NCBI GenBank assembly: GCA_017654855.1
Contig: CM030332.1
Location: forward strand, 1 to 64,000
Reading direction: 5' to 3'
Source: Podospora anserina
Lineage: Eukaryota
DNA: 64,000 nucleotides
A program made the position numbers and the translations under genes. The notes under the pieces are model-generated. The model saw nothing but the letters and a program-made list of their open reading frames with translations. It was not told the DNA's origin and ran no database searches. Below, piece after piece: positions 1 through 24,760 of the stretch (positions within the stretch are counted from its first letter, which is position 1; each line of letters starts with the position of its first letter).

Positions 1-29
1 CCCTAACCCTAACCCTAACCCTAACCCTA
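1..29 (+). repeat. Telomere repeat (CCCTAA)n, left chromosome end
   Basis: The window opens with four perfect CCCTAA plus CCCTA, the C-strand of the TTAGGG telomere of filamentous ascomycetes. Confidence 0.97.
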
Positions 30-1650
30 CCATATATTTATAGCGGTTAATCTTAACGGATCTTTTCTATATATTTATAATAATTAAAATTTCTTTTTAT
101 ATATTTATAGCCGTTAGCATTTTCTTTTATATATATATAAGTTAATATTCCTTTCTATATTTATATAGCGGTTAACACTTTTTCCTTTTTATATATACGG
201 ATTACTATTCCTTTCTATATTTCTATAGCGGTTAGTTTAACCTACCCTTATATATATATCGCGGTTAACACTTTTTCTATATATATATATACGGGTTACT
301 ATTCCTTTCTATATTTCTATAGCGGTTAGTTTTAACCTACCCTTATATATATATCGCGGTTAATACTTTTTTCTATATATATATACGGGTTACTATCCCT
401 TTTTATATTTCTATAGCGGTTAGTTTTAACGTATCCTTATATATATATAGCGGTTAGCCCCTTTTTCCATATATATATACTAGTTTATATTCCTTTCTAT
501 ATTTATATAGCGGTTAATTTTAATTAATATATATATATATATATTTTTAACCCTTAATAGTCTTTTTATTTATATATAACAATTAATACTTTTTTTATTT
601 ATATATATACCGGTTAGTATTCCTTACTATATATAAAGCGGTAAATCTTTATATATATTTATAGCGGTTAACACTATTTACTATATCTATATAGCGGTTA
701 GTATTTCTTTCTATATATTTATAGTAATAAGTTTTAATAGATCTTTATATATATATATAGCGGTTAGCGCTTCTTTCCATATATATATACGGGTTACTAT
801 TCCTTTTTATATTTATATAGCGGTTAGTTTTAACCTATTTTTATATATATATATAGCGGTTAGCACTTCTTTTCACATATATATACGGGTTACTCTTCCT
901 TTCTATATTTTTATAGCGGTTAGTTTTAACGTATTTTTATCTATATATATCGCGGTTAATACTTTTTTCTATATATATATACGGGTTACTATTCCTTTTT
1001 ATATTTCTATAGCGGTTAGTTTTAACGTATCCTTATATATATATAGCGGTTAGTATTTCTTTCTATATATATATACGGATTATTATTCCTTTCTATATTT
1101 ATATAGCGGTTAGCACTTCTTTCTATATATAGATACGGGTTACTATTCCCTTTTATATCTATATAGCGGTTAGTTTTAACGTATTTTTTTATATATATAT
1201 ATCGGTTAGTATTTCTTTCCACATATATATACGGGTTACTATTCCTTCTTATATTTATATTACAATTAATTTTAACGTATTCTTATATATATATAGCGGT
1301 TAATACTTTTTTTTATATATATATAGCGGTTAATACTCTTATTACTATATATATAGCGGTTAATACTTTTCCTTACGTATATATAGCGCTTAATACTTTT
1401 TTTTATTTATATATACCGGTTAATATTCCTTTCTATATTTATATAGCGGTTAGCACCTTATTTATTATATATATAGCGGTTAATATTTTTTTTTTACGTA
1501 TATATAGCGGGTTTAATATATTTATATTTATATATAGTTATTAGCTTTTATATAGTTTTATATATATATATAGTAATTCGTATTCCTTCTTACTAATATA
1601 TAGTAGTTAGTCTTTATATATCCTTATATATATATATAGCGGTTCGGGTA
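30..1650. repeat. Telomere-adjacent degenerate tandem array (~95-bp unit made of ~31-bp subunits), RIP-mutated
   Basis: TATATAGCGGTTA and TATACGGGTTACTATTCC recur. The ATACGG(G/A)TTA subunit recurs near 195, 290, 384, 788, 884 and 980. TpA is extremely enriched. Confidence 0.88.
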
Positions 1651-2023
1651 CTTTCCTACTTATATATAATAATTATATATTCTTTAAATTTTTATATTAT
1701 AATATATAGTTTTTTTTCGTTTATATATATTAAGTATTAATATTTATATATATATATATATATTAATTTAACTTTATTTATTTAATTTATAAAGAATAAT
1801 AAATTTTATATTTTAAATTTATTTAATTAATAATTTTTTTTACTATATATTATACCCTTATTTAATTACTTCTTTCTTTCTTTCTTTATTAATTATTTAA
1901 TTTCTTTATACTATTTAAAAATATTAATAAAAAGTCTCTTCATATTTATTAATTTCTTTTTTATTATAAAATATTATTATTTTTTTCGTAAAATAATATA
2001 TTTAAAGTTTTATAAATATATTT

Positions 2024-2385
2024 ATATAAATTTCGGTTATATTTTTAAAAGTATAAATAATAATATAAACTTTTTAAAGAATTCGGGGGTTTATAGGTTA
2101 TATATATAAATAATTTATTTTTAATATTTTATTTTAAATATAATATTAACTTTTCTTTTTTTATATTTTATATATTATACGTATATAGGCTATTCTAGCC
2201 CTCTAATTAAGCCGTTCCGGTACTTATTATATAGCTTGCGAGCCTATAATATCTTTTCTTTTTCCTACGTATAGTATAGCTTACTAACAAACTCTTATTA
2301 TATACATATCTTTATAATATTATAATTAATTTTATATATTCTTCTACTATTATAATATAATATTTTTCTTTATTTTTATTTTTAT
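2024..2385 (+). mobile_element. Heavily RIP'd solo LTR, family A
   Basis: GGCTATTCTAGCCCTCTAATTAAGCCGTTCCGGTACTTATTAT...GCGAGCCTATA aligns by eye with the family-A LTR at 21892-22252. Ends are approximate. Confidence 0.7.
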
Positions 2386-2435
2386 TTATAAAATATATAT
2401 ATATATATATTTTTTTAAAAAAAAAAACCGTAGTA

Positions 2436-5400
2436 TTACTCTATTAACTTTAGATATCTCGTACGAATTTCCTCCCACACTTTAACCCAAACTAATACCA
2501 TCACAGAACACTCAATATCCAATACTTTTACCCGTATAAATAACCGACGTACTACCCCCATCTCGTTATCCAATATAACCCCGTATTTCTAACAAAATAC
2601 TTTAATATCCTCTTTAAACTAACCTAAACCCCTTTTTTTAACTATAACTAACCCTATTATTAATTTTATCCTATACGAATAATCTTTCCTAGACTTATAA
2701 AACGAACCCTCGTCTTCCCTTAACGGTTCCTACCGCCTATAAAACCTTTTTAGAACCCCACACTTATTATACCCCTAGAAACCTCTGTTTAACTTTCGTA
2801 CGGTACTTAAACTTAAATCCCTAACCCTTAAAAGCTAATCGCCTAACTCCACGCTTTTTTTTTAAGCCCGTTTATCCTTAAGTAAATCTTCTAATATATA
2901 TAGCTTTTCTAATTTACTAAGAAGTTTAATTAATTACGAAATATTTTATACGATATTATAGAATCTATAGGCCGTCGATTATTAAAATTCGTACTATATA
3001 TATTCCTCTTTAAACTTAATATACTTTAAAAAATAAATTATATAATTTACCCGTAATTATAAAAATACTTTAATTATAACCTTTACGTTTCGTATAATAT
3101 CTTTCCTCCTTTCCTACTCTTTTATAATAACCTAACGTTACTTTTCTTTATTAATAATTATATCGAAAGCCTACTTATTTATAGCCTCCGGGATTACTAT
3201 ATAATAAGACCTATAAGCCTCCTCCTTTATTCAGAATAATTCTATACGAGCTATACTAAAAAACCGCTCTTTATATAACCTATATAACTCCTCGCCCTCC
3301 TTATACCCGGCCCTATCTATCTACCTATCCATTACCTAAAAAAGAATAATCCTATAATATAAATTACTATCCCGTACGAAATACTCTATCTCTAGTAACG
3401 TTAAATCTATAGTTCCGGTAATTAATTTTCCGGCCGTACAATTCTTTATAAAAAAAATTATCGATTCGGCCTTTACTCCGTCTCTCCCGGCTCATCCGCT
3501 TTCTTAAATAAAGTCCTTTAATATCTTTAAAAGCCCGGTATAGAAAATATATTATACGTCTAGAATATCGATATTAATATTTAGGGCAGACGTTATTATA
3601 ATAGCACTACTACTTTTAATCTACCCTCGTACGATCTTACTCTTCTAAATACTCTCTTTTACACTACTATAGTATACCGGACACTTAAGTAAATATAAAA
3701 TAACTTTAATAAAATCGATCGAAAGGAAATAAATAATAACCTTTATACGAGGATCACGGTTACCGATAAAATTAACTTACTAATAAAGGGCTTAAAGGAC
3801 AGCCTTTTAATCTCTACACTTAACTATAGAGTATTTAATATTCGATCGGAATATAATAAACCGTACGATAATTACTTTTTACGAATTAAAATATAAACTT
3901 TTATAAAACCTTAATAAATCCCGAGGTAAAAAGGTAGCTATTAAAAAAAGTAATTATATCCCGATTAAAACTATATATTAACCGATTTACTAAAGGAGTA
4001 ATCGAAATTCGTACGACGAGTCTAAAATAATATAATACTCGTTAAAAATAATCCGGTTAAACTATTATCGTATATTAAACCTATTAACGAAAGTTTTAAA
4101 CGTTTTAATATTAAAGGCCTCCGGGGTTATAAAAATAACTTAATTAATCGAAACTTTTTTAAAACTTTAAATCGTATAACTAATCCTTAATTTTTTATAA
4201 CGCTAAACTATATTCTTTTATAGTACTATAAAAAAAAAAATAATAATAATAACCCCGTCCTTCGTATAATAAACTAAGAGTAAAAAAATAATACTCTTTC
4301 TACTACCTATCCCGGTAATATAAAGGATTAGGTTAAACCTTTATACAATAAAAATTAATATTTCGCGCTAATTACCCTTAAAACTAATATTAAGGTTATT
4401 AAATATTTAACGGAAATAACCCTTAATATTAAAGCTAATTAAGTACCGGAATCGTCCTTACTATACGGTATAACGCTAATTTTAGAAAAGGTTAGTTTTA
4501 GTTTACTAAAGAGTTAAAATATCGTCCGAGCTAAAGGTAAATAACTAGTACTATAATTAATTAAGCTTTATAAACCGCTATTATCGTACGGTATACCTTA
4601 ACCTTCCTTAATTAATATACTTAATATATACTATTCTAATAATCCTTTCCGAGTAGCCGGTTTAGGCCGTAATAATAGGATTAAAGCCCTTATTTTCGTT
4701 ATCCTCGTCGTAACTAAAATTAAATCCGTTATAATTATCGGACGACGGTACTATTTTATTTTTTAATAAACTCTTTAAAATAAAATAAATAAAAAATTAA
4801 TAGATAATACCTATAGCAATATAACGTTAAGGCCGAATATTAATTTTAAATCCGAGGTAACGCTCTATATACAATACGAGGGCCCAACTAACTTTATTGG
4901 ACGACTATTAATTTTCTGGATTACCGGAGGATATACTTTAGCCGGCACCCCTAAACTTAATATCTTTAAATAGCCGTATAAATTTAAAATCCCAAAAGAA
5001 TAAAGTAAGGGTAAAGGCTTCGTTAAACTAATATTATAAATTAAGGTAAAAAGGGTAGATAAGCTAAAAGTATCGTACAACGCTTATACTTAATTCCCTT
5101 AAAAAATAACGATAAATAACTTTTAACTATCCGGTATAGCTTAACCCTTTATTATACTATAGTACGATTACGACTATACCGTACTAAATAAATATATTTT
5201 TAAGCCCTTTAACCGGTATATTATGGAACCTTATACTTAAAAGCTTTATCGTACGAGGCGGTAACCCTACTAATAAATAGACGGCGATAAAAAGGAGGGA
5301 TCGGAACTTATTTACCCGGTCTAGATACGATTAGGCTTCGGTCGTATAATAAATATAATTATTACTTTATTTTCTTAATTAAAGTTAAATAAGGGAAGGA

Positions 5401-7142
5401 TTTTCGGTAATTCGTTATATAATTTAATTCTAAGGCCGCCGGAAGTATATATTACTAGGATCGGAAAAAAAGAAATACCCAATTTTATTCTAATTTATAT
5501 TATCCTTTAAATTATTTTAAGGAATTTCCGGAATAAAAATACCCGATATTAACGAGAAAGTTAAGTTTTAAACCGTATAATTAATTTTATTAATTAAAAT
5601 ATATATTATTTCGGCTAGGGCGTTAATAGTAATAAAGATATTTTAATATATAATAGTAGTACCGTTAAACGTAAACCTACCTTCGAATACTATAGAGCTA
5701 TTAATAGTTATACTATACGTACGAGCCTCTAAAACCTAGTCTATTGGTGTAAGGTAGTTACTTTAATAAACCTTAGTTATAAACCTCGAGACTTTAGAGC
5801 GAACGATATTAAAAAGATTAAGCTTTTTACTTACTTTTTTTAGCCGAGTAAACTTATAAAGTAAGTATCGTATAATAAAAGCCTTACCGAGAGTAACGAT
5901 AATAGAAAAGAGTAATATAAAGTCGGACGGGGTATATTACTTTCCATTATTTTTTAGGGCTATAATAGTTAGGGTAGAGAGGAGGGTACTTTCGTATAAC
6001 GACTATAGGAGAGAATAATCTAAAAGTCTAATAAAAAAATCGATAAGTATTTAATTTAATAACTCTTTTCCGGCCTTATCGCTACCGTAATAAAACTCCT
6101 ATATTACTTATATAATAATCTTTAAACTTCTTATTTAACTAACGTTTAAATCGTACGGTAGCCGATCCTATTAATCCTAGCTTTATATACAGTAAATATA
6201 CTTAAAAATCCTTTTCTAAATAAAAAAGTATTTTTATATTATACGAAAGATTAAACTATTATTATTAAAAGGTTTAAAGGGTTTTTAATCGATTATTTTT
6301 TTATTAATCTCGAATAAAACCGGGTAACCGATTTTATTAAACGACGACCTTACTATTATATTAATAGTAACTTAATTAATCCTCTCTTAAATTTTATAAA
6401 GAACCGTAAAGGTAATTAGATTTTTACCGTCCAACTATCCCTCGTTTAGGTTAAAAAAGGTCGAACGATATACGGTTTACTAATTTAAAGATCTAAAGTA
6501 ATATACTTAATTTATCCTATTTAATTAAGGATTTAAAATTAATTATTCTTTACTTACTATAATAATTATTAATATTTATTAAAGGGTTAAATTAATTGTA
6601 TAATAAAATACTATAAACTATTCTTTTCGTCTTTAAGTTTATTATACGAGGTTAAAACTCCCGGTTACCGGCTTCGTTAATCGTACTTTAAAATATTTAA
6701 TAATTAATTGGTTTTTAAAAAACCGTTAGTAATATATTTTAGTTATTTAAGGTCCCTAATATTATTAAGCTACTTTAATATTTCCCCTTTTTATATTAGG
6801 GTTAACTTAATCGTATTTCGTACAGTAATATTTTTATATCGCCCTCTTAGTCCGTATAATATAAATATAAGTATCGTACTTTAATTTATTAAAAGAAAAC
6901 TTCCTTAATTCTGGAATTAGGTTAATTACCGTAGAAGGAAGTATAAAGTTTATTAAATTTTATTATTTTCGAAAAACCGTTAATAAATTATTATACTCTT
7001 ACACGATATTTAATTTATTTATAACTATAATATCTTTATAAGACGTACGAAAATAAGTAAATACTTTATTTATAAAAATAGTTACTTTATATTTTTTATA
7101 AATAAAAATTTAAAAACGGGAAATATAAATAAAAGGGTTTAT
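2436..7142 (-). pseudogene. TLH: Telomere-linked RecQ-type helicase (TLH), full length (~1568 codons), inactivated by RIP
   Basis: One minus-strand frame is kept throughout, with RIP-type stops. De-RIP'd motifs: N-terminal PF.H.P.F..LICKKCK...HLRTSH (DUF3505-like, from 7142); TPMDWVLEARTYG (~5710-5750); Walker A-like ITG(T)GS(G)KS (~4293-4319); L(D)RI.F(D)E(CH) (4032-4058); (A)TSAL(G)..ID.(P)DV(R) and (Q)ESG(R)AGRDG (~3477-3600). All are in frame with the start at 7142 and the stop at 2436. Confidence 0.92.
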
Positions 7143-7269
7143 TTTAGTATAGTATTAATAGTAATATAATAGTTATATACGATGCGAGATGTTATTAAAT
7201 TAAAATTTATTAGTAAATTTTTTTGGAAAAGGATACCCTATTAAAGGTAAAGTGGGTTACGTATAAGTG

Positions 7270-8170
7270 GATAAGGGCAGTAGCGTGCGGTTACCGGGGT
7301 TTAGGTCCCGTATAATAATTAGGGCGTACCTAGGTAGGAAGGTAGTAGGGTACGGTTGCTAGTCCTATACGATAGTCAGGGCGTGCCTGGGCAGGAAGGT
7401 AGTGGCGTGCGGTTACCGGGGTCTAGGTCTATAAAAATAAACCTTTTCCTCTAAAGCAAGCCTTTTCTTTTAAATCCCTCGATAGGCTAGCTATGCAATA
7501 GAGCCTTATTATTCCGATCCAAGCGTCTAGGTCCCGTACGGTAAATAAAGCTCGCCTAGGCACGAAGGCAGTGGCGTGCGGCTGCGAGGATCTAGGACCA
7601 TTTCTTCTAACTACCTCGACTGCCTAACTATACAACAGAGCTTTATTATTCCGATCTAGGCGTCTGGGTCCCGTACGGTAGGCAAGGCTCGCTTAGGCGC
7701 GAAGGTAGTAGCGTGCGGCTACGAGGATCTAGGACCATTTCTTCTAACTACCTCGACTACCTAGCTATATAATAAAGCCTTATTATTCCGATTAAGGCGT
7801 TTGGGTACCGTACGATAGTTAGGGTATACCTGGGCAGGAAGGTAGTGGGGTATGGTTACCGGATCTAGGTCTTTAAAAGCGGACCTTTTTTTCTAAATCC
7901 CTCGATAGGCTAGCTTTACAATAAAGCGTTATTATTCCGATTAAAGCGTTTAGGTACCGTACGATGGTTAGGGCATGCCTCGGCAGGAAGGCAGTGGCGT
8001 ATGGTTGCCAGTCCCGTACGATAGTTAGGGTATGCCTCGGCAGGAAGGCAGTGGCGTGCGGTTGCCGGGGTCTGGGTCTACAAAGCAGGCCTTTTCTTCT
8101 AAATCCCTCGATAGGCCAGCTATATAATATAGCCTTATTATTCCGATTAAACTGTTTAAGTACCGTATAA
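7270..8170. repeat. GC-rich helicase-associated tandem array, copy 1 (units ~137-170 bp and ~56 bp)
   Basis: The unit GTCCCGTACGRTA...GGCACGAAGGYAGTGGCGTGCGGYTGC...GCCTTATTATTCCGATC has anchors at 7309, 7365, 7535, 7672, 7809, 7958, 8015 and 8164. It lies just upstream of the TLH start. Confidence 0.93.
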
Positions 8171-8355
8171 TAAAGTTTAATTAAAAGATATAGATATTTA
8201 GTTCCCGGACGGTTATATAGTAAGTCTATTGTATAATAGAATAATATAAATATCGTATAATAGAATAATATAAATATTGTATAATAAAATATTATATAAT
8301 AATAAAAAAGTATTATATAATTTTTATACGGGGTTTATAGATTTATCGTTTATTA

Positions 8356-9036
8356 ATATTATTACTTAAAAGGTAATATAAAAATCTTAAAGTATAATAA
8401 TTAAGCGGTATATACGGTTTTAAAGTTTTTAAAGGTATAAGTTTAATTCTAATTAAGGCCCTTTTCTAATAAACTTTTAATCGTATAAATTAATTAATTT
8501 TTAAATAAATATTTAAGATAGCTCTTATCCTTACTACCCGTAGCTCGTACGAGGTTATCGACATTAGTTAGCCTTATATTAAAAGCCTAATAAATAACTT
8601 CTATATTAATATTAATATATATTTTTCCCGTACGATAATGCTTAAATTAATAAATATATAGGAGATATAATAAGTAATTTCGGCTCTACTATCGGCCGAT
8701 ATCGAATACGTCCCTGGTAAAATAAAGGGGGCTAAAATACTAGCTCGTCCGAGCTACTTAAATATAATTTTAATCTAGAGCCGTAGTTTAATAGCTATCT
8801 CTCCCTATACTACCTATACTAATAAGCCTAATAGAAGGCCGTTTAAAGATTATCGTACGATAAATAAATATTAAGGTAGTGTTTATAGTAACTATAAGTA
8901 GAGGGATTACGGTAGTAAATATAGTTTTTATACCGCTAAATAAAGCGGTATTAAAGCCGAGGAAGAGAGCGAGGGAAATAAGGGAGCGGCGGAAGAAAGC
9001 TAGGAGCCTATAGTTATTAGTAATTCCGATAATTAA
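8356..9036 (+). pseudogene. DUF3716-like Cys-rich protein gene, RIP-inactivated, divergent from TLH (copy 1)
   Basis: The frame starting at 8701 reads ...KILARPSYLN.ILI*SR(G)...P(C)TT(C)...PFKD(C)...(G)V(C)(G)N(C)K*RD(H)GSK(C)SF...EEESEG...EPIVIS(D)SD(D)*. RPSYxNxxLIQSRG, CxxC, GPF and GxCxNCxW..C match DUF3716 as I know it. Copy 2 keeps GPF and has TGA where this copy has TAG, implying an ancestral TGG (Trp). Start is approximate. Confidence 0.8.
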
Positions 9037-9069
9037 ATAAATCGTATAATAATAAAAATCGATTAATTT

Positions 9070-11022
9070 TATATTTTTTATTTATAATTCTATACCGCTC
9101 GTACGATAATATACTTTATACTATTCTATGTAACTCGTTTAAGTAATTCTAATACTATCTTTACTTTTTATTTTAACGGGAAAAATCTTATCGGATTATA
9201 TAACTTACCTTTTTATTACTTAACTTTACTTTACTATTTACGTATATTATTAATATACTTATACCTAACTTTATATTTTTTACTTATAATTCTATACCGT
9301 TTATATAATAATATATTTTATATTATTCTGTGTAGCTCGTTTAATTATTTTTAATAGTATTTTTACTTTTTATTTTAATAGGAAAAATCCTATCGGATCG
9401 TATAACTTACTTTTCTATTACCCAACCTCACTTTACTATTTACGTACATTACTAATATACTTATACCTAACTTTATATTTACTATTTATAATTCTATACC
9501 GCTCGTATAATAATATACCCTATACTATTCTATATAGCTCGTTTAAATAATTCTAATAGTATCTTTATTTTTTATATTAATAGAAAAAATCCTATCGGAT
9601 CGTATAACTTACCCTTCCATTACCCAACCTTACTTTACTATCCACGTATATTACTAACATATTTATACCTAACTTTATATTTTTTACTTATAATTCTATA
9701 CCGCTCGTATAATAATATACCTTATACTATTCTATATAGCTCGTTTAGGCAATTTTAATACTATTTTTACTTTTTATTTTAATGGGAGAAATCTTATCGG
9801 ATCGTATAACTTATTTTTCTATTACTTAACCTTACTTTACTATCTATATATATTACTAATATACTTATACCTAACTTTATATTTATTATTTATAATTTTA
9901 TACCGCTCGTATAATAATATACCTTATACTATTTTATATAACTCGTTTAGGTAATTCTAATAGTATCTTTGCTTTTTATATTAATAGGAGAAATCTTATC
10001 GGATCGTATAACTTACCCTTTTATTACTTAACCTCACTTTACTATTTACGTATATTACTAATATACTTATACTTAACTTTATATTTTTTATTTATAATTC
10101 TATACCGCTCGTATAATAATATACTTTATACTATTCTATATAGCTCATTCAGGTAATTTTAATACTATCTTTACTTTTTATTTTAACAAAAAAAATCCTA
10201 TCGGATTATATAACTTACCTTTCTATTACCCAACCTTACTTTACTATCTACGTATATTACTAATATACTTATACCTAACTTTATATCTTTTATTTATAAT
10301 TCTACACCGCTCGTACGATAATACACCTTATACTATTCTATATAACTCGTTTAATTATTTTTAATAATATCTTTACTTTTTATTTTAATAGGAGAAATCT
10401 TATTAAATCATATAATTTACTTTTCTATTACCTAACCTTACTTTACTATTTACATATATTACTAGCACACTTATACCTAACTTTATATCTACCATTTATA
10501 ATTCTATACCGCTCGTACGATAATACACCCTATACTATTCTATGTAACTCGTTTAGGTAATTCTAATAATGTCTTTACTTTTTATATTGATAGGAGAAAT
10601 CCTATCGGATCGTACAACTTACCCTTCTATTACCCAACCTCACTTTACTATCTACGTATATTACTAGCATACTTATACCTAACTTTATATCTTTTATTTA
10701 TAATTCCATACCGCTCGTACGGTAATACACTTTATACTATTCTATACAGCTCGTTCAGGCAATTTTAATACTATCTTTACTTTTTATTTTAACGGAAGAA
10801 ATCCCATCGGATCGTATAACTTACCCTTCCATCACCCAACCTCACTTTACTATCTACGTATATTACTAGCATACTTATACCCAACTTCATATCTTTTGCT
10901 TATAATTCCACACCGCTCGTACGATAATATACCTTATACCATTCTATGCAGCTCGTCCAGGCGATTCTAATACTATCTTTGCTTTTTATTTTAACGGGAG
11001 AAATCCCATCGGATCGTACAAC
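9070..11022. repeat. 202-bp tandem array, copy 1 (~10 units)
   Basis: The CCGCTCGTAC/TATA anchor falls at 9100, 9504, 9706, 9908, 10110, 10312, 10514, 10716 and 10918, an exact 202-bp period. The last units are the least mutated. Confidence 0.95.
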
Positions 11023-11124
11023 TAAATTCTTCAACGGATCCTACCCCCTGTTTCTAAAGTGGGGCCTTTTTTTTAGTGCGCTTTTCAACGGATTGTACTA
11101 CAATCCATCGGAGAATAACTGATA
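11023..11124. other. Inner terminus of subtelomeric unit, copy 1, with palindrome GGATTGTA-C-TACAATCC (11090-11106)
   Basis: About 100 bp are repeated at 16423-16524. Identity between the two copies stops after ...GGAGAATAACTRATA. Confidence 0.7.
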
Positions 11125-11683
11125 GGGTTAAACTAATCGTACGATAGGATATTATAAACTACTTTTTTTATTTTTAGGTTTATTATACGAGGTCGGGATT
11201 TCCGGCTACCGGCTCCGTTAATCGTACTTTAAAGTATCCGGTAACGAACCGGCTTTTAAAAAACTATTAGTAATATATTTTAATTATTTAAAATCCTTAA
11301 TATTATTAAACTACTTTAATATTTCCCCCTTTTATATTAAAATTAACTTAATCGTACCTCGTATAACAATACTTCTATATTACTTTTTTAATCCGTACGA
11401 TATAAGCGTAAGTATTGTACTTTAATTTATTAAAAAAAGGTTTCCCTAATTTTAAAATTAGGTTAATTACTATAGAAGGAAGTATAAAGTTTATTAAATT
11501 TTATTATTTTCGAAAAACCGTTAATAAATTATTATACTATTATATAATATCCGGTCTATCTATAATTATAATATTTTTATAAGATATACGAAAATAGGTA
11601 ACTATTTTATTTATAAAAATAATTACTTTATATTTCTTATAAATAAAAATTTAAAAGTAAGAGATATAAATAAAAGGTTTTAT
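11125..11683 (-). pseudogene. TLH: 5' fragment (~560 bp) of a second TLH copy, RIP'd
   Basis: Collinear with 6584-7142 (e.g. TTATTATACGAGGT...CCGGCT(T/C)CGTTAATCGTACTTTAAA). It is truncated at the junction with the terminus of unit 1. Confidence 0.88.
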
Positions 11684-11819
11684 TTTAGAATAGTATTAAT
11701 AGTAATATAATAGTTATATACGATATAAAATATTATTAAATTAAAGTTTATTATTAAGTTTTTTTAATAAAGGATACCCTATAGAAGGTAGAGTGGGTTA
11801 CGTGTAAATAGATAAAGAT

Positions 11820-13400
11820 AGTAACGTGCGGTTACCGGGGTTTAAGTCCCGTACGATAGTTAGGGTATACCTAGGTACGAAGGTAATAACGTGCGGTTAG
11901 GTTTTCTAAAATAAACTTTTTTTTTTAAATTTTTTAATAGGCTAGCTATATAATAGAGCTTTATTATTCCTATTTAGGCGTTTAAGTCCCGTACGGTAAT
12001 TAAGGCTCGCCTAGGCACGAAGGTAGTGGCGTGCGGTTACCGGAGTCTAGGTCTTCCAAAACAAGCCTTTTCTTTTAAATCCTTCGATAGGCCAGCTGTG
12101 TAATAGAGCCTTATTATTCCGATCCAGGCGTCTAGGTCCCGTACGGTAGTTAAGGCTCGCCTGGGTACGAAGGTAGTAGCGTGCGGCTGCGAGGATTTAA
12201 AATTATTTCTTTTAACTACCTTGACTAGCTAGCTATGTAATAGAGCTTTATTATTCCGATCTAGGCGTCTGGGTCCCGTACGGTAATTAAGGCTCGCCTA
12301 GGTACGAAGGTAGTGGCGTGCGGCTACGAGGATTTAGGATTATTTTTTTTAAATACCTCGATTAGCTAGCTGTATAATAGAGCTTTATTATTCCGATCTA
12401 AGCGTCTGGGTCCCGTACGGTAATTAAGGCTCGCCTAGGCGCGAAGGCAGTGGCGTGCGGCTGCGAGGATCTGCGTCCCGTACGGTAGTTAGGGCGCGCC
12501 TAGGCACGAAGGCAGTAGCGTGCGGCTGCGAGGATCTAGGACTATTTCTTCTAACTACTTCGACTAGCTAGCTATACAATAGAGCTTTATTATTCCGATC
12601 CAAGCGTCTAGGTCCCGTACGGTAATTAAGGCTCGCCTAGGCACGAAGGCAGTGGCGTGCGGTTGCCGGAGTCTGGGTCTTCCAAAGCAGGCCTTTTCTT
12701 CTAAATCCTTCGACAGGCCAGCTATGCAATAGAGCCTTATTATTCCGATCCAAGCGTCTAGGTCCCGTACGGTAGTTAAGGCTCGCTTAGGCACGAAGGT
12801 AGTGGCGTGCGGCTGCGAGGATCTAGGATTATTTCTTCCAACTACCTCGACTAGCCAGCTGTGCAACAGAGCCTTATTATTCCGATCCAGGCGTCTGGGT
12901 CCCGTACGGTAATCAAGGCTCGCCTGGGCACGAAGGCAGTGGCGTGCGGCTGCAAGGATCTAGGACCATTTTTTCTAACTACCTCGATTAGCTAGCTGTG
13001 TAATAGAGCCTTATTATTCCGATCCAGGCGTCTGGGTCCCGTACAGTAGTTAAGGCTTGCCTAGGCACGAAGGTAGTGGCGTGCGGCTGCGAGGATCTGC
13101 GTCCCGTATAGTAGTTAGGGCGCGCCTAGGCACGAAGGCAGTGGTGTGCGGCTGCGAGGATCTAAGACTATTTCTTTTAACTACCTCGACTAGCTAGCTG
13201 TGTAACAGAGCCTTATTATTCCGATCAAAGCGTCTAGGTGCCGTACGATAGTTAGGGCATGCCTCGGCAGGAAGGCAGTAGCGTGCGGTTGCCGGGGTCT
13301 GGGTCTTTTTAAGTAGGCTTTTTTTTCTAAATCCTTTGATAGGCTAGTTATATAATAGAGCTTTGTTATTCCGATTAAAGCGTTTGGGTGCCGTACGGTA
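11820..13400. repeat. GC-rich helicase-associated tandem array, copy 2, with a 626-bp higher-order repeat
   Basis: CGTAC anchors at 11850, 11990, 12140, 12277, 12414, 12479, 12616, 12766, 12903, 13040, 13105, 13242 and 13392 give spacings of 140, then (150,137,137,65,137) twice, then 150. Confidence 0.95.
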
Positions 13401-13593
13401 AGGTTTAATTAAAAGATATAGATATTTAATCTTTAAATAATTATATAGTAGGCTTATCGTATAATAAAATAATATAAATATTATATAATAGAATAATATA
13501 AATATTATATAATAAATTAATATAAATATTATATAATAATAATTAAGAATTATATAATAATTATATAAGGTTTATAGAATTATCGTTTATAGG

Positions 13594-14270
13594 TATTATC
13601 GCCTAAAAGGTAATAAAATCTCGAAGTATAATAATTGAGCGGTATATACGGCTTTAAAGTTTCTAAAAGTATAAGTTTAATTCTAATTAAAGTCCTTTTT
13701 TCATAAACTTTTAATTATATAAACTAATCGACTTTTAAATAAATATTTAAAATAACTTTCGTCCTTACTATCCGTAGTTCGTACGAAATTATCGATATTA
13801 ACTAGCCCTATATTAGGAGGCTAATAAATAGTTTCTATATTAATATTAATATATATTTTACCCGTATAATAATACTTCTCTTAATAAATATATAAGAAAT
13901 ATAATAAGTAATTTCAGCTTTATTATTGGCCGATATCGAATACGTCTCCGGTAAAATAAAGGGGACTAAGGTACTAACTTATTCGAACTATTTAAATATA
14001 ATTTTAATTTAGAATTATAGTTTATAAGTTACTTTTCTTTATACTATTTATACTAATAAGCTTAATAGGGGGCCCTTTAAGGATTATCGTACGACGGATA
14101 GGTATTAAAGTAATATTTATAATAATTATAAGTGAAGGGATTATAAAAGTAAATATAGTTTCTATACCGCTAAATAAAGCAGTATTAAAGTTAAAGAGGA
14201 AAGTAAAGAAAATAAGGAAGTTAAGGAAGTAATCGAGGAGCTTATAGTTATTAATAATTCTAATAATTAA
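13594..14270 (+). pseudogene. DUF3716-like gene, RIP-inactivated (copy 2)
   Basis: Collinear with 8356-9036. It reads ...RGPFKD(C)RTTD.Y*...(C).N(C)K*RD(H).SK(C)SF. Confidence 0.78.
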
Positions 14271-14929
14271 ATAGGTTATATAATAATAAAAGTTTAATAT
14301 ATATTTTTTATTTTTATTTTTATATTTATTTTTTAAAATTAATTATATAAATAACTTTTATTATCGGCTTTAATACTTTCTATATATTAATAATTTTAAT
14401 AAAATAAATTTATAATATAATATTATAATTTATATTATATTATATAGCGTAATAAAGTAATTTTAATAATATTTTTTATTTAAAAAATACTTTATTAAAT
14501 TATATTAAAATAATAATAAAATATATAAAATAATAATAATATTATAAAAATATTTTTAATAAGGTTTTTAAATAAAGATATTTATATAATAATAGCTTAC
14601 TTTTAAGTTAGGTTTTATATAAAATAAATACCGGATTAAATTAATTAAAAATTAAAAATTATATATATATCTTTTAAACTATTTAATTCTCCGAAAGCTT
14701 TATTTATTTATTAATATCTATAGGCCTATAACCGTACCTTAAATTAATATAATATATTATTTTATAAATAAATTATCCTTAATTATTTATATATATTATT
14801 AATATATTTTTATTTAATTTTATATTTATTATATATTATTATATATTATAATATATTATTAAATATTATTTATATATTATTTATATATTATTTATATTAT
14901 AATATATTTTATATTCTTTTATATACCTC

Positions 14930-16422
14930 GTATAAATAATTTTAATAATATTTTTATTTTTTATTTTAATAAAAAAATTTTTATCGGATAATATAATATA
15001 TTATTTTATTATTTAATTTTACGTTATTATTTATATATATTACTAATATACTTATATTTAACTTTATATTTACTATTTATAATTCTATACCGCTCATACG
15101 ATAATACACCCTATATATTCTATACAGCTTATATAAGTAATTCTAATAATATCTTTATTTTTTATTTTAATAAAAAAAATCCTATCGGATTGTATAACTA
15201 ACTTACTATTCTACTATCTAACTTAATTACACTTTCTACGTATATTACTAACCTATATATACCTAACTTTACACTTAACTTTATATTTATTATTTATAAT
15301 TCTACGCTACTCGTACGATAGTATACTCTATACTATTCTATACAGCTCGTTCAAACGATTCTAATAATATTTTCCTTTTTTATTTTAATAAAAAAAACTT
15401 TATCGGATCGTATAACTAAATTCTTAACGGATCGTACTTACTATACTATTTATATATATTATTAATATATTTATATTTAACTTTATATTTACTATTTACT
15501 ATTCTATACTATTCGTATAATAATATATCTTATATTATTCTATACAGCTCGTTTAAGCAATTCTAATAATATTTTTCTTTTTTATTTTAATAAAAAAAAC
15601 TTTATCGGATCGTATAATTAAATTCTTAACGGATCGTACTTACTTTACTATTTACGTATATTATTAATATATTTATATTTAATTTTATATTTACTATTTA
15701 TTATTTTATACCGCTCGTACGATAATATATCCTATACTATTTTATATAGCTCGTTTAAACGATTTTAATAATATTTTTCTTTTTATTTTAATTAGGAAAG
15801 TTTTATCGGATCGTATAAATAAATTTTTAACGGATCTTACTTACTTTACTATTTACGTATATTACTAATATACTTATACTTAACTTTATATTTACTATTT
15901 ATTATTTTACACCGCTCGTATAATAATATATCTTGCATTATTCTATATAGTTCGTTCAGGCAATTCTAATAATATCTTTCTTTTTTATTTTAGTAAAGAA
16001 AACTTTATCGGATCGTACGACTAAATTCTTAACGGATCGTACTTACCTTACTATTTACGTATACTACTAACATACTTACACTTAACTTTATATTTATTAT
16101 TTACTATTCTATACCGCTTATACGATAATATATTTTATACTATTTTATGCAACTCGTTTAAACGATTCTGATAATATTTTTTTTTTATTTTAGTAAAAAA
16201 GATTTTATCGGATCGTACAACTAAATTCTTAACGGATCTTACTTACCCTACTATTCACGTACATTACTAGTATATTTATACCCAACTTTATATTTACTAT
16301 TTACTATTTTACACCGCTCGTACGATAATATATCCTATATTATTCTATACAACTCGTTTAGGCGATTCCAATAATATCTTTTTTTTTTATTTTGGTAAGA
16401 AAGATTTTATCGGATCGTACAA
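14930..16422. repeat. ~201-202-bp tandem array, copy 2 (variant unit)
   Basis: It has the same CCGCTCGTACGATAATA and ATCGGATCGTAC motifs at ~201-bp spacing. Later units include TAAATTCTTAACGGATC from the post-array flank. It is preceded by an almost pure-AT tract (~14300-14930). Confidence 0.9.
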
Positions 16423-17419
16423 CTGAATTCTCAATGGATCCTACCCCCTATTTCCAAAGTGGGGCGTTTTTTTTAGTGCGTTTCTCAACGGATTATACTA
16501 CAATCTATCGGAGAATAACTAATAAAAAGTTTTTTAGCGAAAGAGATTGTAAATACTTAGGTAGTAAGGTCGTCGACCGCTTAATCGGACGAAGTAGTAA
16601 GTTTTTTTAAAGAAAAGGCTATTAAGAGGAAGCGGTTAATAAGTATTAAAAAAAATAAGGAGTAAACGGGAATAAGGAGAATTAGTATAGGTATTTATAA
16701 TTAAAGGATAGGACGGTGCGATTAGTCCTACAAACCTCTATAGGAGGGAAATTTATTAAAGCGTTTTTTCCTCCTTAAACAGCTTACGTAACTATTTAAT
16801 AATTTTACTTTATAAGTTAAGTAAATAATAAAAAATAAAGACTTACCGAAGACCTTTTTTTTTCTTTAATTCTCTATTCTAAAAAAAAATTCTTTACTTC
16901 CCTCTCAATAACCCTTTAATTATAAATTATACTACACACTACTCCCTTTTAATTTTTATAAAACAATATTATTAACGCTTTTTCTAAAGTTCATTTATAA
17001 TATATTATAAGAAAAATTTACCGCTACTAAAAAATTCGGCCCTCCCAATAATCTCGTTAAAGAAATTATTTAAAAAGCGTGCCTTTAAAGTATCGATAGG
17101 GTTTATAGCTTTAGTCCCCCGCGCGGTATTTTCCTTCCCTAAAGCAATAATACTTTTTAATTTATTCGTTTTGGCTTTAACCTAGTTACCGACCTAGGAA
17201 ATTATATTATAGGAAGGCGGCCCAACTAAATTAATATTACTTTCGTAAAGCAGTTTTCGATTAATATTATTAAATATCTTTTTTTTAGTTTAAAAATAAC
17301 GACCCTCCTTAATCGGACTTATATTTACGGTATTTATATAACTTCCTTTACTTACGTTATATATAACCTTTAAAGTTAATTAAAGGCTAAATAGTAGTTT
17401 ATTAGCTCGGTCCTTACTT

Positions 17420-18662
17420 ACGTTTTTCGGTACTTTCTTTAAAGAATCCTCGAACGTTATATATAGATCTCTAAAGAGCCTCTAAACCCTATTATAATAA
17501 AGTTATCGATACGCTTTTTTTTACCTAACGATAATTATAATACCTTTAACCGATAATATTAAATCCTCCCTATTTATATTAATAACGGAAGTTACTAAGT
17601 AATAAGTATTTACGACGTTACTATTAGTATTTTAATTTATATAAACTCGTTAAAGGATTAGAAGAGGTATTAAACTAATATTATTTTTTACTTAATATTT
17701 TATATCTATTACGCTTTCCACTATAGCTTTAACGTAAAAGTAAGGAGGCTAGCTTATAGTAAATAGGGCGGGGCGTAGAAATATAGTTTTTAAGTTTTAA
17801 AGTATTACTATACTTACTTTTAAAGAGGTATTTCGTATAGTAAAGAGGAGGATTTAACGGTAGTAAAGGCTTAAAGAGGAGATTATTACTATAGAAACTA
17901 TAAAACCGTAAGCGTTACGGGGAAAAAAATAATAAAGTTATAAATAGCTTATATAAAAAAGTTTTTAAGTTATAAGCCTAATTAAAGGGTACGTAATAAA
18001 AAATAAAGGAGGAGGGGCTTAAAGGATTTAATAAACATAAAAAGATTTAATTTACTAAATACCCTTTCGTTTCCTTTTAAGTCTCTACCAATTTCCCGAT
18101 TTACTTCCCTCCTTAGTTCTCCGTTAACTTTAGTTACTACTATTAAAGGAAATAAATATATCGTAAGTCTTCCCTCTAATTATAAAGGGTTTAAATTAAA
18201 TAACGTATCAAATAACTTTTAACGACTAAGCAAGGTAATAACCCCCTTTAAGTTCCGCATTCCTATAATAATAAACTTACCGCTCCTCTCTAGGCCTATA
18301 ATTATCTATCCCCTTACTTATAATTACTTAGGATCGTTAATAATATACCTTTCGCCTAATTATATACTTAGTTTTATAGGATAAAAGTAGGCTCCTAAAG
18401 TTCTTTAAAGACGAAGGGAGGAGGTCGTTAGGTTACTAGTTATAATAGCTCGATAGGGACGGAAGTATACTTTAAGATCCGAGAAGTAAGGGTACTTTTC
18501 TCTCTGATTAAAGGAGAATGGATAAAGGGATAGCAGGATTATATTATTTTCCCTTCTTTTTACTAAATAATATTTTTTTTTTTTTTTTTTAGTTTATAAG
18601 GGATTTTTTTTTATATATGTATTTACCTACTAGTTTATAATAGTTAAATATAAAGGGAGGTT
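17420..18662. repeat. RIP'd ~1.25-kb segment of unknown origin, duplicated at 19651-19790 plus 20791-21891
   Basis: Direct collinear match, e.g. ATATAGATCT(C/T)TAAAGAGCC, AATAACGGAAGTTA(C/T)TAAGTAATAAG and GCTCGATAGGGACGGA. Confidence 0.85.
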
Positions 18663-19650
18663 TAGTTTAGGGTGCGGCTATAGGCTTAAAAGTATAAGTA
18701 AGGAAGCGGGGCTCTTAAAGGATTTAGAGGTTTAAGGGTTATATATTATTAACTAGTAAGCCCTAATAGGCCTATAATATAGAACCTATACAGGGTTACT
18801 GTAAAATACAGCAGTGCGCAAGCGGAAGCGGGAGAATACGACGGCAATGCCGAAGGAAGGTAAAGCACTATAATATAGTAAGGTATAAGGAATAAGAATT
18901 ACTTTTATTACCCTTAGCTTTAGCTTTAAGCTTTTGCCCTTAAGGAAAGAAAGAAAACTATTCTACAGGAAAGAGGAGAGGTCTATATATAGGCCTTCGT
19001 AAGCCTACTGTAGGTCCTGTAGGCCCTGGAAGCCCCTATACCACTTTAGGGTATTTAGTGGGCTTAGGTGGGTCTAATATAGACTCACGGAAATCTATAG
19101 AACCTTCAGCAGCAAAGGTGCCCTATAAATTATGCTATTGTAGCGACTTATTACGTAAGCCTATAGCCACTTTAAAAAGTTCCAGTATCCTATTAATTAA
19201 GCCTTAGGCCACAGTAGCCCTATAAGCCTTCAAGGGTCCCTTATAAAAAACATTCTAAAGGGATCCAAGCCGGGAAGTTCCATTACTGCTTATAGCAGTA
19301 CTGCCCACTGTAATATCAATCTGTAGGGCAGTAAGTAGGGCACTTAGTAGTACCCACACATTAACATATATATAAGCGGTTTGCTTCGGACATTCTATTT
19401 TAGACAGGACATCGACTTTTATTCTTTTCTTCGTATTTTGTGCCTTACACGCGTGCAGGCAATTCTGGCCCTCTAATTAGGCCAATCCGGTGCTTATTAT
19501 GTGGCCTACGAGCCTATAGTATCTTTTTTTTGTCCTACGTGAGGTGCGGCCTGCGAGCGAGTTACTATCACGCAGGTGTGTTTATTCTGAGACCTATTAA
19601 GGGTATATTTATAGTGTTATAGTTATTTTATGTATTTTCTCACCATTTCA
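18663..19650 (+). mobile_element. Solo LTR family A (~360 bp) interrupted by a family-B LTR
   Basis: Starts T(G>A)GTTTAGGGTGCGG and ends CCATTTCA. It matches the uninterrupted copy at 21892-22252 once 18747-19366 is removed. Confidence 0.8.
18747..19366 (+). mobile_element. Solo LTR family B (~620 bp), copy 1
   Basis: Ends are T(G>A)TTAA...TTAACA with a 5-bp TSD TATAT. Nearly identical to 20075-20706. Confidence 0.85.
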
Positions 19651-19790
19651 ATGTTTTTCGGTATTTTCTTTAAAAGATCTTCGAGTATTATATATAGATC
19701 TTTAAAGAGCCTTTAAACCCTATTATAATAAAGTCGTTAATAAATTATTTCCTATTTAATAATAACTATAGTACTTTTAATCGGCGATAC

Positions 19791-20790
19791 TGAAATAGTA
19801 AGAAAACATATAAAACAACCACAATACTATAAATATACCCTCAATAAGTCTCAGAATAAACATACCTGCGTGACAGTAACTCGCTCGCAGGCCGCACTTC
19901 ACGTAGGACAAAGAAAAGATACTATAGGCTCGCAGGCTACATAATAAGCACCAGATTAGCCTAATTAGAGGGCTAGAATTGCCTGCACGCGTACAAGGCA
20001 CAAAATACGAAAAAAAAAAAAAAAGTCGATGTCTTATCTAAAATAGAATATCCGAAGCAGACCGCTTATATATATATTAGCTGGTAAGCCCTGATAGGCC
20101 TATAATATAGAACCTATACAGGGTTGCTGTAAAATACAGTAGTGCGTAAGCGGAAGCGGGAGGATACGACGGCAGTGCCGAAGGAAGGTAAAGCACTATA
20201 ATATAGTGAGGTATAAAGAATAAGAATTGCCTTTATTACCCTTGGCTTTAGCCTTTAGCCTTAGCCTTAAGCTTTTGCCCTTAAGGAAAGAAAGAGAATT
20301 ATTCTATAGGAGAGAGGAGAGATCTATATATAAGCCTTCGTAGGCCTACTGTGGGTCCTGTAGGCCCTGGAAGCCCCTATACCACTTTGGGGTATTTGGT
20401 GGGCTCAGGTGGGTCTAGTATAGACTCACGGAAATCCATAGAACCTTCGGCAGTAGAGGTGCCCTGTAAATCACACTATTATAGCAACTTACTACGTAAG
20501 CCTATAGCCACTTTAGAAGGTTCTAGTATCCATTAACTAAGCCTTAGGCTACAGTAGCCCTATAAGCCTTTAAGGGTCCCTTATAAAGAATATTCTAAAG
20601 GGATCTAAGCCGGGAAGTTCCATTACTGTTTATAGCAGTATTGCCCACTGTAATATTAATTTATAGGGCAGTAAGTAGGGCACTTAGTAGTACCTACACA
20701 TTAACAATATATAACCCCTAAACCCCTAAGTCCTCTAAGAGCCCTACTTCCTTACTTATACTCTTAGGCCTATAGCCGCACCCTAAACTA
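19791..20790 (-). mobile_element. Solo LTR family A, inverted, interrupted by a family-B LTR
   Basis: Reverse complement of family A (TGAAATAG...CCCTAAACTA), flanked by an ATAC direct repeat. Removing it restores the 17420-18662 duplicate. Confidence 0.85.
20075..20706 (+). mobile_element. Solo LTR family B, copy 2
   Basis: T(G>A)TTAGCTGG...CACATTAACA with a 5-bp TSD ATATA. Confidence 0.85.
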
Positions 20791-21891
20791 ATACTAAGTC
20801 CTCCTTATTTATATTAATAACGGAAGTTATTAAGTAATAAGTATTTACGATATTACTATTAATATTTTAATTTATATAGACTCGTTAGAAAATTAGGAGG
20901 GGTATTAAACGAATATTATTTTTTACTTAATATCTTATATCCATTACGCTTTTTATTATAGCTTTAACGTAAAAGTAAAGAAACTAATCTACGGTAAATA
21001 AGGCGGGGCGTAAAAATATAGTTTTAAGATTTTAAAATATTACCGCACTTATTTTTAGGGAGGTACTTTATATAGTAAAAAGAATAATTTAATAATAATA
21101 AAAGTTTAAAGAGGAAATTATTACTATAGAAACTATAAAACTATAAGCGTTATAGGGAAAAAAATAATAAAGTTATAAATAATTTATATAAAAAAGTTTT
21201 TAAATTATAAATATAATTAAAAAGTATATAATAAGAAATAAAGGAAAAGGGATTTAAAAAATTTAATAAACGCAGAAGGATTTAACCTACTAAATACCTT
21301 TTCGTTTTCTTTTAAATTTTTATTAATTTCCCGATTTACTTCCCTCTTTAGTTCTCTATTAGTTTTAATTATTATTATTAAGGGAAATAAATATATTATA
21401 AGTTTTCCTTTTAATTATAAAGGGTTTAAACTAAATAATATATTAAATAACTTTTAACGATTAAATAAAGTAATAAGCTCCTTTAAGTTCCGCACTCCTA
21501 TAATAATAAACTCGCCGCTCCTCTCTAAACCTATAATTATTTATCCCCTTATTTATAATTATTTAAAATCGTTAATAATATACTTTTCGCCTAATTATAT
21601 GTCTAGTTTTATAGGATAAAAGTGGGCTCCTAGAGTTCCTTAGAAACGAAAGAAAGAAGTTATTAGGTTACCGGTTATAATAGCTCGATAGGGACGGAGG
21701 TATACTTTAAGATCCGAGAAGTAAGGGTGCTCTTCTTTTTAATTAAGGGAGAATAGATAAAGGGATAGTAAAATTATATTATTTTCTTTTCTTTTTATTA
21801 AACGATATTTTCTTTTTTTTAGTTTATAAAAGATTTTTTTTATATATACATTTACCCACTAGTTTATAGTAGTTAAATGCGAAGGGAGGTT

Positions 21892-22252
21892 TAGTTTAGG
21901 GTACGGCTATAGGCCTAAAAGTATAAGTCAGGAAGCGGGGCTCTTTAAAGACTTAAGGGTTTAGGGGTTATATATATAAGCGGTTTGCTTCGGACATTTT
22001 ATTTTAAACAAGATATCGACTTTTATTTTTCTTCGTATTTTATGCTTTGCACGTATATAGGTAATTTTAGCCCTCTAATCAGGCCAATCCGGTGCTTATT
22101 ATATGGCCTGCGAGCCTATAGTGTCTTTTCTTTATTTTAAGTAAAGTGCGGCCTGCGAGCGAGTTACTGTTATGTAGGCGTGTCTATTTAGGGACCTATT
22201 AAGGATATATTTACGGTATTGTGGTTAGTTTATGTGTTTTCTTACTATTTTA
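21892..22252 (+). mobile_element. Solo LTR family A, uninterrupted
   Basis: Same ends as the other A copies. The central GGGGTTATATATATAAGCGG site is empty. Confidence 0.82.
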
Positions 22253-23976: not shown

Positions 23977-24591
23977 TATGTATAAGATGCTTGGATTAGT
24001 TCCAGCGGCTCCTTAATGGAGATGGTTACTTCTGATTCGTCATTCGACCAATTCCCGCTCGCCTTGCTTTTGCCGCGTCTGCCCAGTAAGACCTACTTAT
24101 CCCCATCATCCACTGGTGGTCCTCACAGCAACCATGCCGGAAATAGTTAAGCAGGATTCCTTTCATCGCGACGAGCCAGTGACTCCGGAAGGTCCTCACA
24201 GTAACCGCTCACTCTTGGGACTCATCAGGCGGGAACCTCAGCCATTAGTATTCGGCAAAGCCAGACTCTAGAGAAGATTGGCTCTTCTAAGAGACCATTC
24301 AACCGTCGCGCTCTGTCGGGATATCCTCCATTGGTTAATCTAGATACAATAATGTGGTCGATCTAGTCCCGATCCCTTTAGTGGGTTCTACCTTGGGCTG
24401 CGGTGCATCAGAAGGCCGAGGGGTAGAACTGAAATGGTTCAATCTGTGTAGTTAACCCTTTGGTCAGAGCCGTGGTTGGATGTTTGTGATGTGACCTGAG
24501 GCCGACTACCGGTAATACACCGATGCCCACCGTGGCCAATGTTGTGAGATGAGTTCTTCACTCATCATATGGCTCAACAGTGTGACACTTA

Positions 24592-24760
24592 GACGTCCAC
24601 AGTTGGCAGAGGACCTTGCACCACAATCAATCATCTTTCACCACACATTCAGAAGCTACCATTGATACGTGCGATGGCCACTGGTGCAAATAGGCACGTC
24701 TGAATGTGTGGTGAAAGATGATTGATTGTGGTGCAAGGTCCTCTGCCAACTGTGGACGTC
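24592..24760. mobile_element. MITE-like foldback element (169 bp) flanked by TA
   Basis: Perfect 66-bp inverted arms (24588-24653 and 24699-24764) around a 45-bp spacer, reading TA|GACGTCCAC...GTGGACGTC|TA. Confidence 0.75.

Follow-up and report, generated by a model that had tools for sequence, protein, structure and literature searches.

Layout of the chromosome-end unit and density of its palindrome

The window analysed here comprises the first 64,000 nucleotides of contig C1, counted from its left end, in a fungal genome assembly (36 Mb, nine contigs). Its outer part (1–23.9 kb) has been altered by repeat-induced point mutation (RIP) and contains a chromosome-end unit with a TLH gene, two tandem arrays and a DUF3716 gene. 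The palindrome CGTACG, called the tag below, is dispersed through this unit, and a locus or element that carries the dispersed CGTACG array is referred to as tagged. Our analysis supports the view that the tag is a signal under selection, dispersed over the element and superimposed on its coding sequence, because its density is low in other RIP-mutated repeats and because a TLH gene from another fungus (locus L103), which has escaped RIP, is tagged as well. The following features were located in the window.

1–29 (+): telomere repeat (CCCTAA)n at the left end of contig C1
30–2430: distal repeats and spacer, common to most chromosome ends, outside the array and without intact CGTACG
2460–16324: dispersed (Y)CGTACG(R) palindrome array, 43 intact sites in the window copy
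2436–7142 (−): TLH gene, RIP-destroyed, one frame of about 1568 codons, directed toward the telomere; within it, in order, N-terminal zinc fingers, TLH domain and RecQ helicase
4530–5290 (−), approximate: TLH domain, placed via protein alignment
7464–8066: tandem array A, units of 137/149/57 bp, one site each
8671–8982 (+): core, matched by profile, of a RIP-destroyed DUF3716 gene of the transposon-borne type, divergent from TLH; the gene probably starts near 8540
9064–11023: tandem array B, 202-bp unit with one full site and one CGTACA-type near-site per unit
11067–11120: inner end of the first unit; an identical sequence closes the second unit at 16520
11124–16520: second unit, truncated
11124–11641: TLH 5′ fragment of the second unit
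about 11790–13400: array A of the second unit
13908–14213: weak DUF3716 remnant of the second unit (independent E-value, i-E, 0.16)
14899–16444: array B of the second unit
22765–23957: pogo/Fot1-like transposon, partial and RIP-mutated, with sites at 22989 and 23751

The chromosome-end unit belongs to the TLH subtelomeric class, which is known from Magnaporthe (PMC1635262) and Fusarium oxysporum (bioRxiv 10.1101/2024.02.27.582403). A RecQ-type gene adjoins the telomere repeats with its 3′ end outward, and an alignment with intact PF12013 relatives placed a TLH domain upstream of the helicase and a zinc-finger region at the N-terminus. The unit, with its tandem repeats, is common to many chromosome ends: the genome holds 18 TLH matches, 10 of which, besides that of the window, are full-length or nearly so and lie at other chromosome ends, and the full-length sister copies are 83–88% identical. 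The passages on TLH regions in the two reports describe a similar single-frame gene of about 4.7 kb directed toward the telomere, flanking tandem repeats, and copies, solitary or arrayed, at the majority of chromosome ends. Those passages mention neither a dispersed coding word nor a DUF3716 passenger, and the Magnaporthe TLH repeats carry telomere-like motifs instead of the tag (PMC1635262).

The original prediction had listed 14 CGTACG coordinates and noted their concentration in the unit. All 14 coordinates were correct, and 43 of the 49 CGTACG in the window fall in 2460–16319, with two in 16.5–23.9 kb and four in the next 40 kb. Both tandem arrays carry one CGTACG per unit. The decayed versions that had been described inside the unit are real, since the 32 positions in the TLH gene of the window copy consist of 11 intact and 21 decayed ones. 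The claim that the tag spans the whole unit and stops at its boundary held as far as the enrichment is concerned, but the array starts only at the 3′ end of TLH, short of the outer edge of the sequence that the chromosome ends have in common. In 23.5 kb of distal repeats there is no intact CGTACG, and TATACG in these repeats was not shown to be a decayed tag site. The sites at 22989 and 23751, regarded earlier as isolated, turned out to be members of a pogo-like family with nine conserved positions; therefore, the tag is not confined to the TLH unit in this genome.

The enrichment was assessed with shuffled sequences. Positions 2400–7100 contain 11 sites, compared with a mean of 1.4 and a maximum of 4 in 300 dinucleotide-preserving shuffles, and synonymous-codon shuffling of the raw TLH open reading frame of the window gave a mean of 0.85 and a maximum of 6 in 2000 shuffles. 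Density was then surveyed in 38 fetched chromosome-end stretches, in which 500-bp bins were sorted by class and mixed bins were dropped. TLH-unit DNA contained 285 sites in 117.5 kb (2.43/kb), other RIP-mutated repeats of similar GC and CpG content 12 sites in 71 kb (0.17/kb), and non-RIP DNA 7 sites in 140.5 kb. The density in other RIP-mutated repeats is thus not equal to that of the unit but 14-fold lower.

Short bacterial words such as HIP1, the DNA uptake sequences and Chi run through genes in all frames and bias codon and amino-acid use. These words are genome-wide, whereas the present tag is limited to particular fungal elements: the 36-Mb genome has 3680 CGTACG, and the reversed control word is twice as frequent. 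The extended forms YCGTACGR (1291) and RCGTACGY (686) are alike at about half of their reversed controls, so a host avoidance specific to the tag was not shown. Genome-wide, 14 of the 15 YCGTACGR pairs 20–50 bp apart lie within TLH units. Triple clusters on contig C1 were found in the TLH unit, in eight pogo-like copies and in five other places. A RIP-mutated repeat at G000:C1:4654914-4655428 and C1:5034859-5035373 (L144, L145) has three CGTACG within 0.5 kb and no DUF3716 matches, and one Gypsy-like stretch has four sites in 10 kb, also with no DUF3716 matches.

The array before RIP

The pattern that preceded RIP was reconstructed from an alignment of 18 copies and fragments. Within the 4.7 kb of the TLH gene it revealed 32 positions of the site, 31 of which are present in a pooled sequence assembled from the highest-GC states; synonymous shuffling of the pooled sequence gave 2.5. 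The gaps between sites have a median of 130 bp and are more even than random (coefficient of variation 0.62, P 0.0026), and gaps of 250–490 bp may hide lost sites. All codon phases are used (11/4/17). A pyrimidine before and a purine after the hexamer occur in 57 of 62 half-site flanks, and YCGTACGR describes the motif better. Many stops remain in the pooled sequence, which therefore does not represent the true ancestor. A copy free of RIP was also sought over 2.2 kb in four other runs from other strains; among the top 40 differences, most were additional C>T and G>A changes. Taken together, the element carried YCGTACGR before RIP about every 130–150 bp through its genes, spacers and both tandem arrays.

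The centre of the site is TA in 410 of 411 cells of the alignment. CA or TG in any copy was seen at one of the 32 site centres versus 288 of 868 other TA columns. Array A provided an internal control, in which a CGTGCG position is kept in 40 unit copies and has been converted by RIP in 6. At the tag position of the same array, CGTACG is present in 74 of 90 units, with no CGCACG or CGTGCG among the eight commonest forms. Across the copies of the TLH gene, 148 of the 411 cells are intact. These data indicate that RIP erodes the sites and did not make them. The earlier statement that RIP alone is an insufficient explanation was borne out by the ancestral TA centre, by the scarcity of the word in other RIP-mutated repeats and by the tagged L103.

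Some neighbouring sequences were also recorded. Window positions 16520–22300 consist of untagged RIP-mutated repeats, and a 640-bp piece of them (20067–20714) is found in several other places of the genome at 91–94% identity, once inside a TLH unit. Just inside the subtelomere, in non-RIP DNA, inspection by eye showed a near-perfect inverted repeat at 24588–24764, with arms of about 66 bp and a spacer of 45 bp.

Tagged relatives and the DUF3716 gene

A TLH-domain profile search of metagenomes provided 79 loci from the best 80 of 260. Two of them (L103 and L089) are tagged and 77 are without the array, which indicates that the tag is not a general property of TLH. The original prediction of a protein-binding or self-recognition signal therefore stands in its dispersed, coding-overlaid aspect, but not as general TLH self-recognition, and protein binding is only inferred. 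Locus L101 was not counted as tagged (5 versus 0.7 in a Markov scan; six sites in 20.7 kb).

L103 has an intact open reading frame of 1681 amino acids, a GC content of 53% and no depletion of CpA, and its contig ends in a telomere. It contains 28 sites in 7753–13289 and none in the 7.7 kb upstream. As anticipated for a TLH copy untouched by RIP, its gene has the same word at 5-fold over synonymous shuffling, with 25 sites in the frame versus 4.7 expected (maximum 11 of 1000). It uses 25 of 43 possible places, compared with 0–4 of 12–24 in 26 other TLH frames, and has 29 RT dipeptides, compared with 3–13 in the same frames. The lightly mutated L089 has 43 sites in 6.2 kb, with 24 versus 5.9 in the TLH frame. 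Hence, in distant TLH elements the tag uses synonymous freedom and also amino-acid choice. The spacing is more even than random in the window TLH, L103 and L089 (P 0.0026, 0.002 and 0 of 5000, respectively). The protein of the window is 30–32% identical to those of L103 and L089, which are 47% identical to each other, and only 1 of 31 site positions is common to the window and L103; density, and not position, is thus conserved. In a FastTree tree of 73 of 85 rows (duplicates and short rows dropped; 571 columns), tagged and untagged TLH proteins appear interleaved.

No other dispersed word replacing CGTACG was detected by synonymous shuffles of 47 TLH frames. A private word for each TLH lineage had been hinted at by the Markov scan and was rejected by these shuffles, and the word of L056/L115 was a local repeat and not a dispersed tag. 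Inspection by eye of the alignment rows listed gave no zinc-finger or C-terminal residues special to tagged TLHs. Near-miss words are raised in L103:7961-13006 (CGGACG 14 versus 5.6, CGTACA 9 versus 3.1); the real site may be wider than a 6-mer. The flank L103:1-7700 is AT-rich (24–31% GC), without CpA loss and poor in CC/GG and GC, which looks like C-to-T hypermutation in a context other than that of classical RIP. At seven other loci besides L103 the telomere is on the TLH 3′ side, unlike L102 and L107, in which a 12-base telomere-like repeat (L102:1-60, L107:1-60) is at the contig end upstream of TLH and the gene points away from it. No TLH or DUF3716 relative was found in viral contigs.

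The TLH domain is predicted to have a tyrosine recombinase catalytic-domain fold with conserved R, K, R, H and Y. The predicted fold of the L103 domain (L103:8951-10759) was matched to archaeal Xer 4a8e with a VIA Z of 12.0 and a root-mean-square deviation of 3.2 over 173 residues. The top 13 rows of the fold search were recombinases or topoisomerase IB, and the best Foldseek E was 0.01. Residues R374, K408, R503, H551 and Y560 are invariant in 48 of 48 TLH sequences. Prediction of the domain from a single sequence gave no usable model (predicted local distance difference test score 38).

The second tagged family in the genome is pogo/Fot1-like, 1.87 kb long with 55-bp inverted ends, and has more than 40 long matches (representative G000:C1:5884319-5886185, L138); some of its copies are 95–99% identical. 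Nine CGTACG positions are conserved over the 1.87 kb, and the transposase frame contains seven sites versus 0.96 expected. Among the 79 loci from metagenomes, pogo-like sequence was limited to a 750-bp fragment on two near-identical contigs, and this fragment has no sites.

The DUF3716 gene was examined next to the tagged TLH genes. In L089, an intact DUF3716 gene (L089:2169-2735) lies directly upstream of TLH (Pfam E 1.2e-12). A profile of the transposon type was built from 70 relatives of the L089 protein; it matched the window copy with an i-E of 6.8e-10 and the pooled sister copies with 3.1e-28, while Pfam itself gave no detection of the RIP-mutated copies. The six-cysteine core and the blocks RPSY.N..LIQSRG and C.NCKWRD assign the gene to transposon-borne DUF3716 (PF12511). 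In L103, a weak remnant (i-E 0.022) is present within 1-7700, about 2 kb upstream of TLH and divergent as in the window. All 3 tagged TLH loci thus have a DUF3716 gene or remnant upstream, one of these matches being weak, compared with 0 of the 28 untagged loci whose upstream flank was long enough for the test (an estimated 2.3 kb or more); many of the latter are near-duplicates, and by a rough count they represent about 17 lineages. The association gave a Fisher P of 0.0002, and 0.006–0.016 when L103 was left out and near-duplicates were merged. All 57 DUF3716 relatives compared match only DUF3716 in Pfam at a meaningful E.

An intact single host gene with a transposon-type DUF3716 was observed at G000:C4:1963315-1963485 (L129/L149; 329-aa frame, i-E 2e-33). 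It has an RGRP stretch, which we take to be AT-hook-like, and no tag array around it. This gene is possibly a tamed copy or a trans reader of the tag.

Candidate readers of the palindrome

On balance, we favour a reading in which the tag would be a selected cis-acting mark of a mobile chromosome-end element and would offer docking sites to a zinc protein of the DUF3716 family; from there this protein would activate or de-silence the element in trans, in a VANC-like manner. A six-cysteine DUF3716 protein, encoded either by the element or by a host gene of that subfamily, would bind the palindrome, coat the element and keep it transcribed or unsilenced in subtelomeric heterochromatin. If this protein acts in trans, families that lack the gene, for example the pogo-like one, could ride along. 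In the present genome, RIP has destroyed the DUF3716 gene of the element and about two thirds of the sites. The form YCG-TA-CGR resembles the everted CGG-type triplets that are read by fungal zinc-cluster dimers.

Two sets of published observations bear on this reading. DUF3716 genes travel as mobile-element passengers, like that of the present unit, in REP9 (IS3EU) of Zymoseptoria tritici, which has REP9-1 and REP9-2, and knocking in REP9-1 elsewhere induced the other three REP9 genes (PMC8232023). REP9 belongs to another element class, and the REP9 sections of that report give no palindrome and do not study the mechanism (PMC8232023). In the cyp51 promoter repeats of Pseudocercospora fijiensis, the identical 8-bp word TCGTACGA is present, and extra copies of it accompany higher expression; the binding factor is not known in those accounts (PMC6637983, PMC8252799). 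The cyp51 word forms a few clustered copies in a host promoter, whereas the present tag is an even array through a mobile element.

The closest parallel is offered by the VANC anti-silencing proteins and their motifs in the VANDAL transposons of Arabidopsis, where an unrelated element, AT9TSD1, shares the motif and is affected in trans (PMC5735166). In both cases there is an element-encoded accessory protein (here the DUF3716 gene inside the unit), a short motif present many times in the element and also in tandem-repeat units, and an unrelated element that shares the motif (here the pogo-like family). The VANC motifs are described as non-palindromic 8–9-mers, mainly non-coding and family-specific (PMC5735166), whereas the tag is a single palindrome written evenly through coding DNA (the TLH gene alone has 32 positions), and distant TLHs and the pogo-like family have this one word in common. 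DUF3716 also appears to be a protein family other than VANC. Therefore, the tag would appear to work most like the VANC motifs, but it does not belong with them.

Several points weigh against a DUF3716 reader. The pogo-like family is tagged without a DUF3716 gene, and its Y..R flank preference is weak (10 of 16 half-flanks, P 0.23). Eight intact DUF3716 matches over the cut-off in the genome have 0–1 sites in the surrounding 3.1 kb, so the domain alone does not predict an array. Only three tagged TLH lineages are known here, the DUF3716 match of L103 is weak, the upstream flank was too short for the DUF3716 test at 49 of 79 loci, and the survey was made without the four proteins closest to the TLH of the window. 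Sequence comparison of DUF3716 with the PDB gave no match under E 0.37, comparison with Atlas structures gave a best value of 0.77, a lead at most, and no DNA-binding relative was found in the structure and sequence comparisons. CGTACG had no matches in six supplementary text files examined for REP9. Finally, its presence in the cyp51 promoters of two fungi means that an unrelated host factor could be the reader.

The last point leads to an alternative that we regard as unlikely: the tag would be bound by a conserved transcription factor of the host that has no relation to DUF3716, perhaps a zinc-cluster sterol regulator of the Upc2/Ecm22 type. Unrelated elements would accumulate sites to borrow host activation, and DUF3716 would only travel along. 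The same palindrome in the Pseudocercospora and Cercospora cyp51 promoters is tied to expression or resistance in the published accounts, and UPC2/ECM22-type sites have been predicted at such a word (bioRxiv 10.1101/2020.11.12.379818), but the predictions there come from yeast matrices only. The gene-less pogo-like family and one identical word in elements that are only 30–47% alike would also suit a host factor. This explanation is at odds with the distribution of DUF3716 genes and remnants, in 3/3 tagged and 0/28 untagged TLH loci, and with the even spacing through coding DNA, which is unlike a promoter enhancer.

It is improbable that the tag is the target or product of DNA modification or nucleosome positioning, as a HIP1-like methyltransferase site or as linker-phased CpG words. 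Two CpG within a palindrome and sites placed at more regular intervals than expected by chance (median gaps of 130, 131 and 202 bp) would agree with such a process, but the medians differ between elements and single gaps range from 34 to 489 bp. Moreover, CG-NN-CG words with other centres show no increase (TA is the centre in 31 of 49), the genome at large is not enriched, and CpG in the sites decay no slower than other CpG (0.60 versus 0.72 surviving). Less probable still is recognition by the TLH protein itself, with the tag serving as Chi- or KOPS-like loading or recombination sites. The zinc fingers and the tyrosine-recombinase-like domain of TLH, together with the start of the array at the TLH 3′ end, would agree with it; the 77 of 79 TLH loci without an array, the lack of a substitute dispersed word in 47 frames, the interleaving of tagged and untagged TLHs in the tree and the tagged pogo-like element argue against it. 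A mutational artefact, in which RIP turns CGCACG, CGTGCG and CGCGCG into CGTACG and repeat homogenisation spreads the product, is highly improbable and was rejected: every copy here and in the four other runs is heavily RIP-mutated and six array A copies did gain CGTACG from CGTGCG, but the un-RIP'd L103 is tagged, other RIP-mutated repeats stay at 0.17/kb and do not reach equal density, the array A control and the TA centres show a word not derived from CpA/TpG, and RIP removes sites.

The proposal of a DUF3716-family reader may be extended, tentatively and with less confidence than we place in the proposal itself, to filamentous fungi in general. They may possess a portable cross-family switch-on system, with one evenly written palindrome read by a captured DUF3716 zinc protein; TLH subtelomeres would be among its adopters, gene-less elements would freeload, and host copies of the gene or promoter word may have been tamed. 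Adoption by TLH subtelomeres fits their being self-moving recombinase-helicase elements. Within the Creative Commons PMC and bioRxiv literature, we found no report of CGTACG in TLH or other fungal mobile elements; one hit (PMC8608569) was a primer match and irrelevant. What is new here is the tag in TLH chromosome-end units, the direct exclusion of RIP as its source and a tagged family without a DUF3716 gene.

A transposon-type passenger gene and the tag occur together in some TLH units at chromosome ends, which bears on whether such units are host structures or mobile elements. A simple test is opened by the small size of the system, one small protein and one 8-bp word. If the proposed reading is true, this would be, as far as we found, the first system by which selfish DNA of fungi counters silencing or activates itself in a sequence-specific way; it would give DUF3716 a function and would point to a possible reader of TCGTACGA, the unexplained enhancer word of fungal cyp51 promoters.

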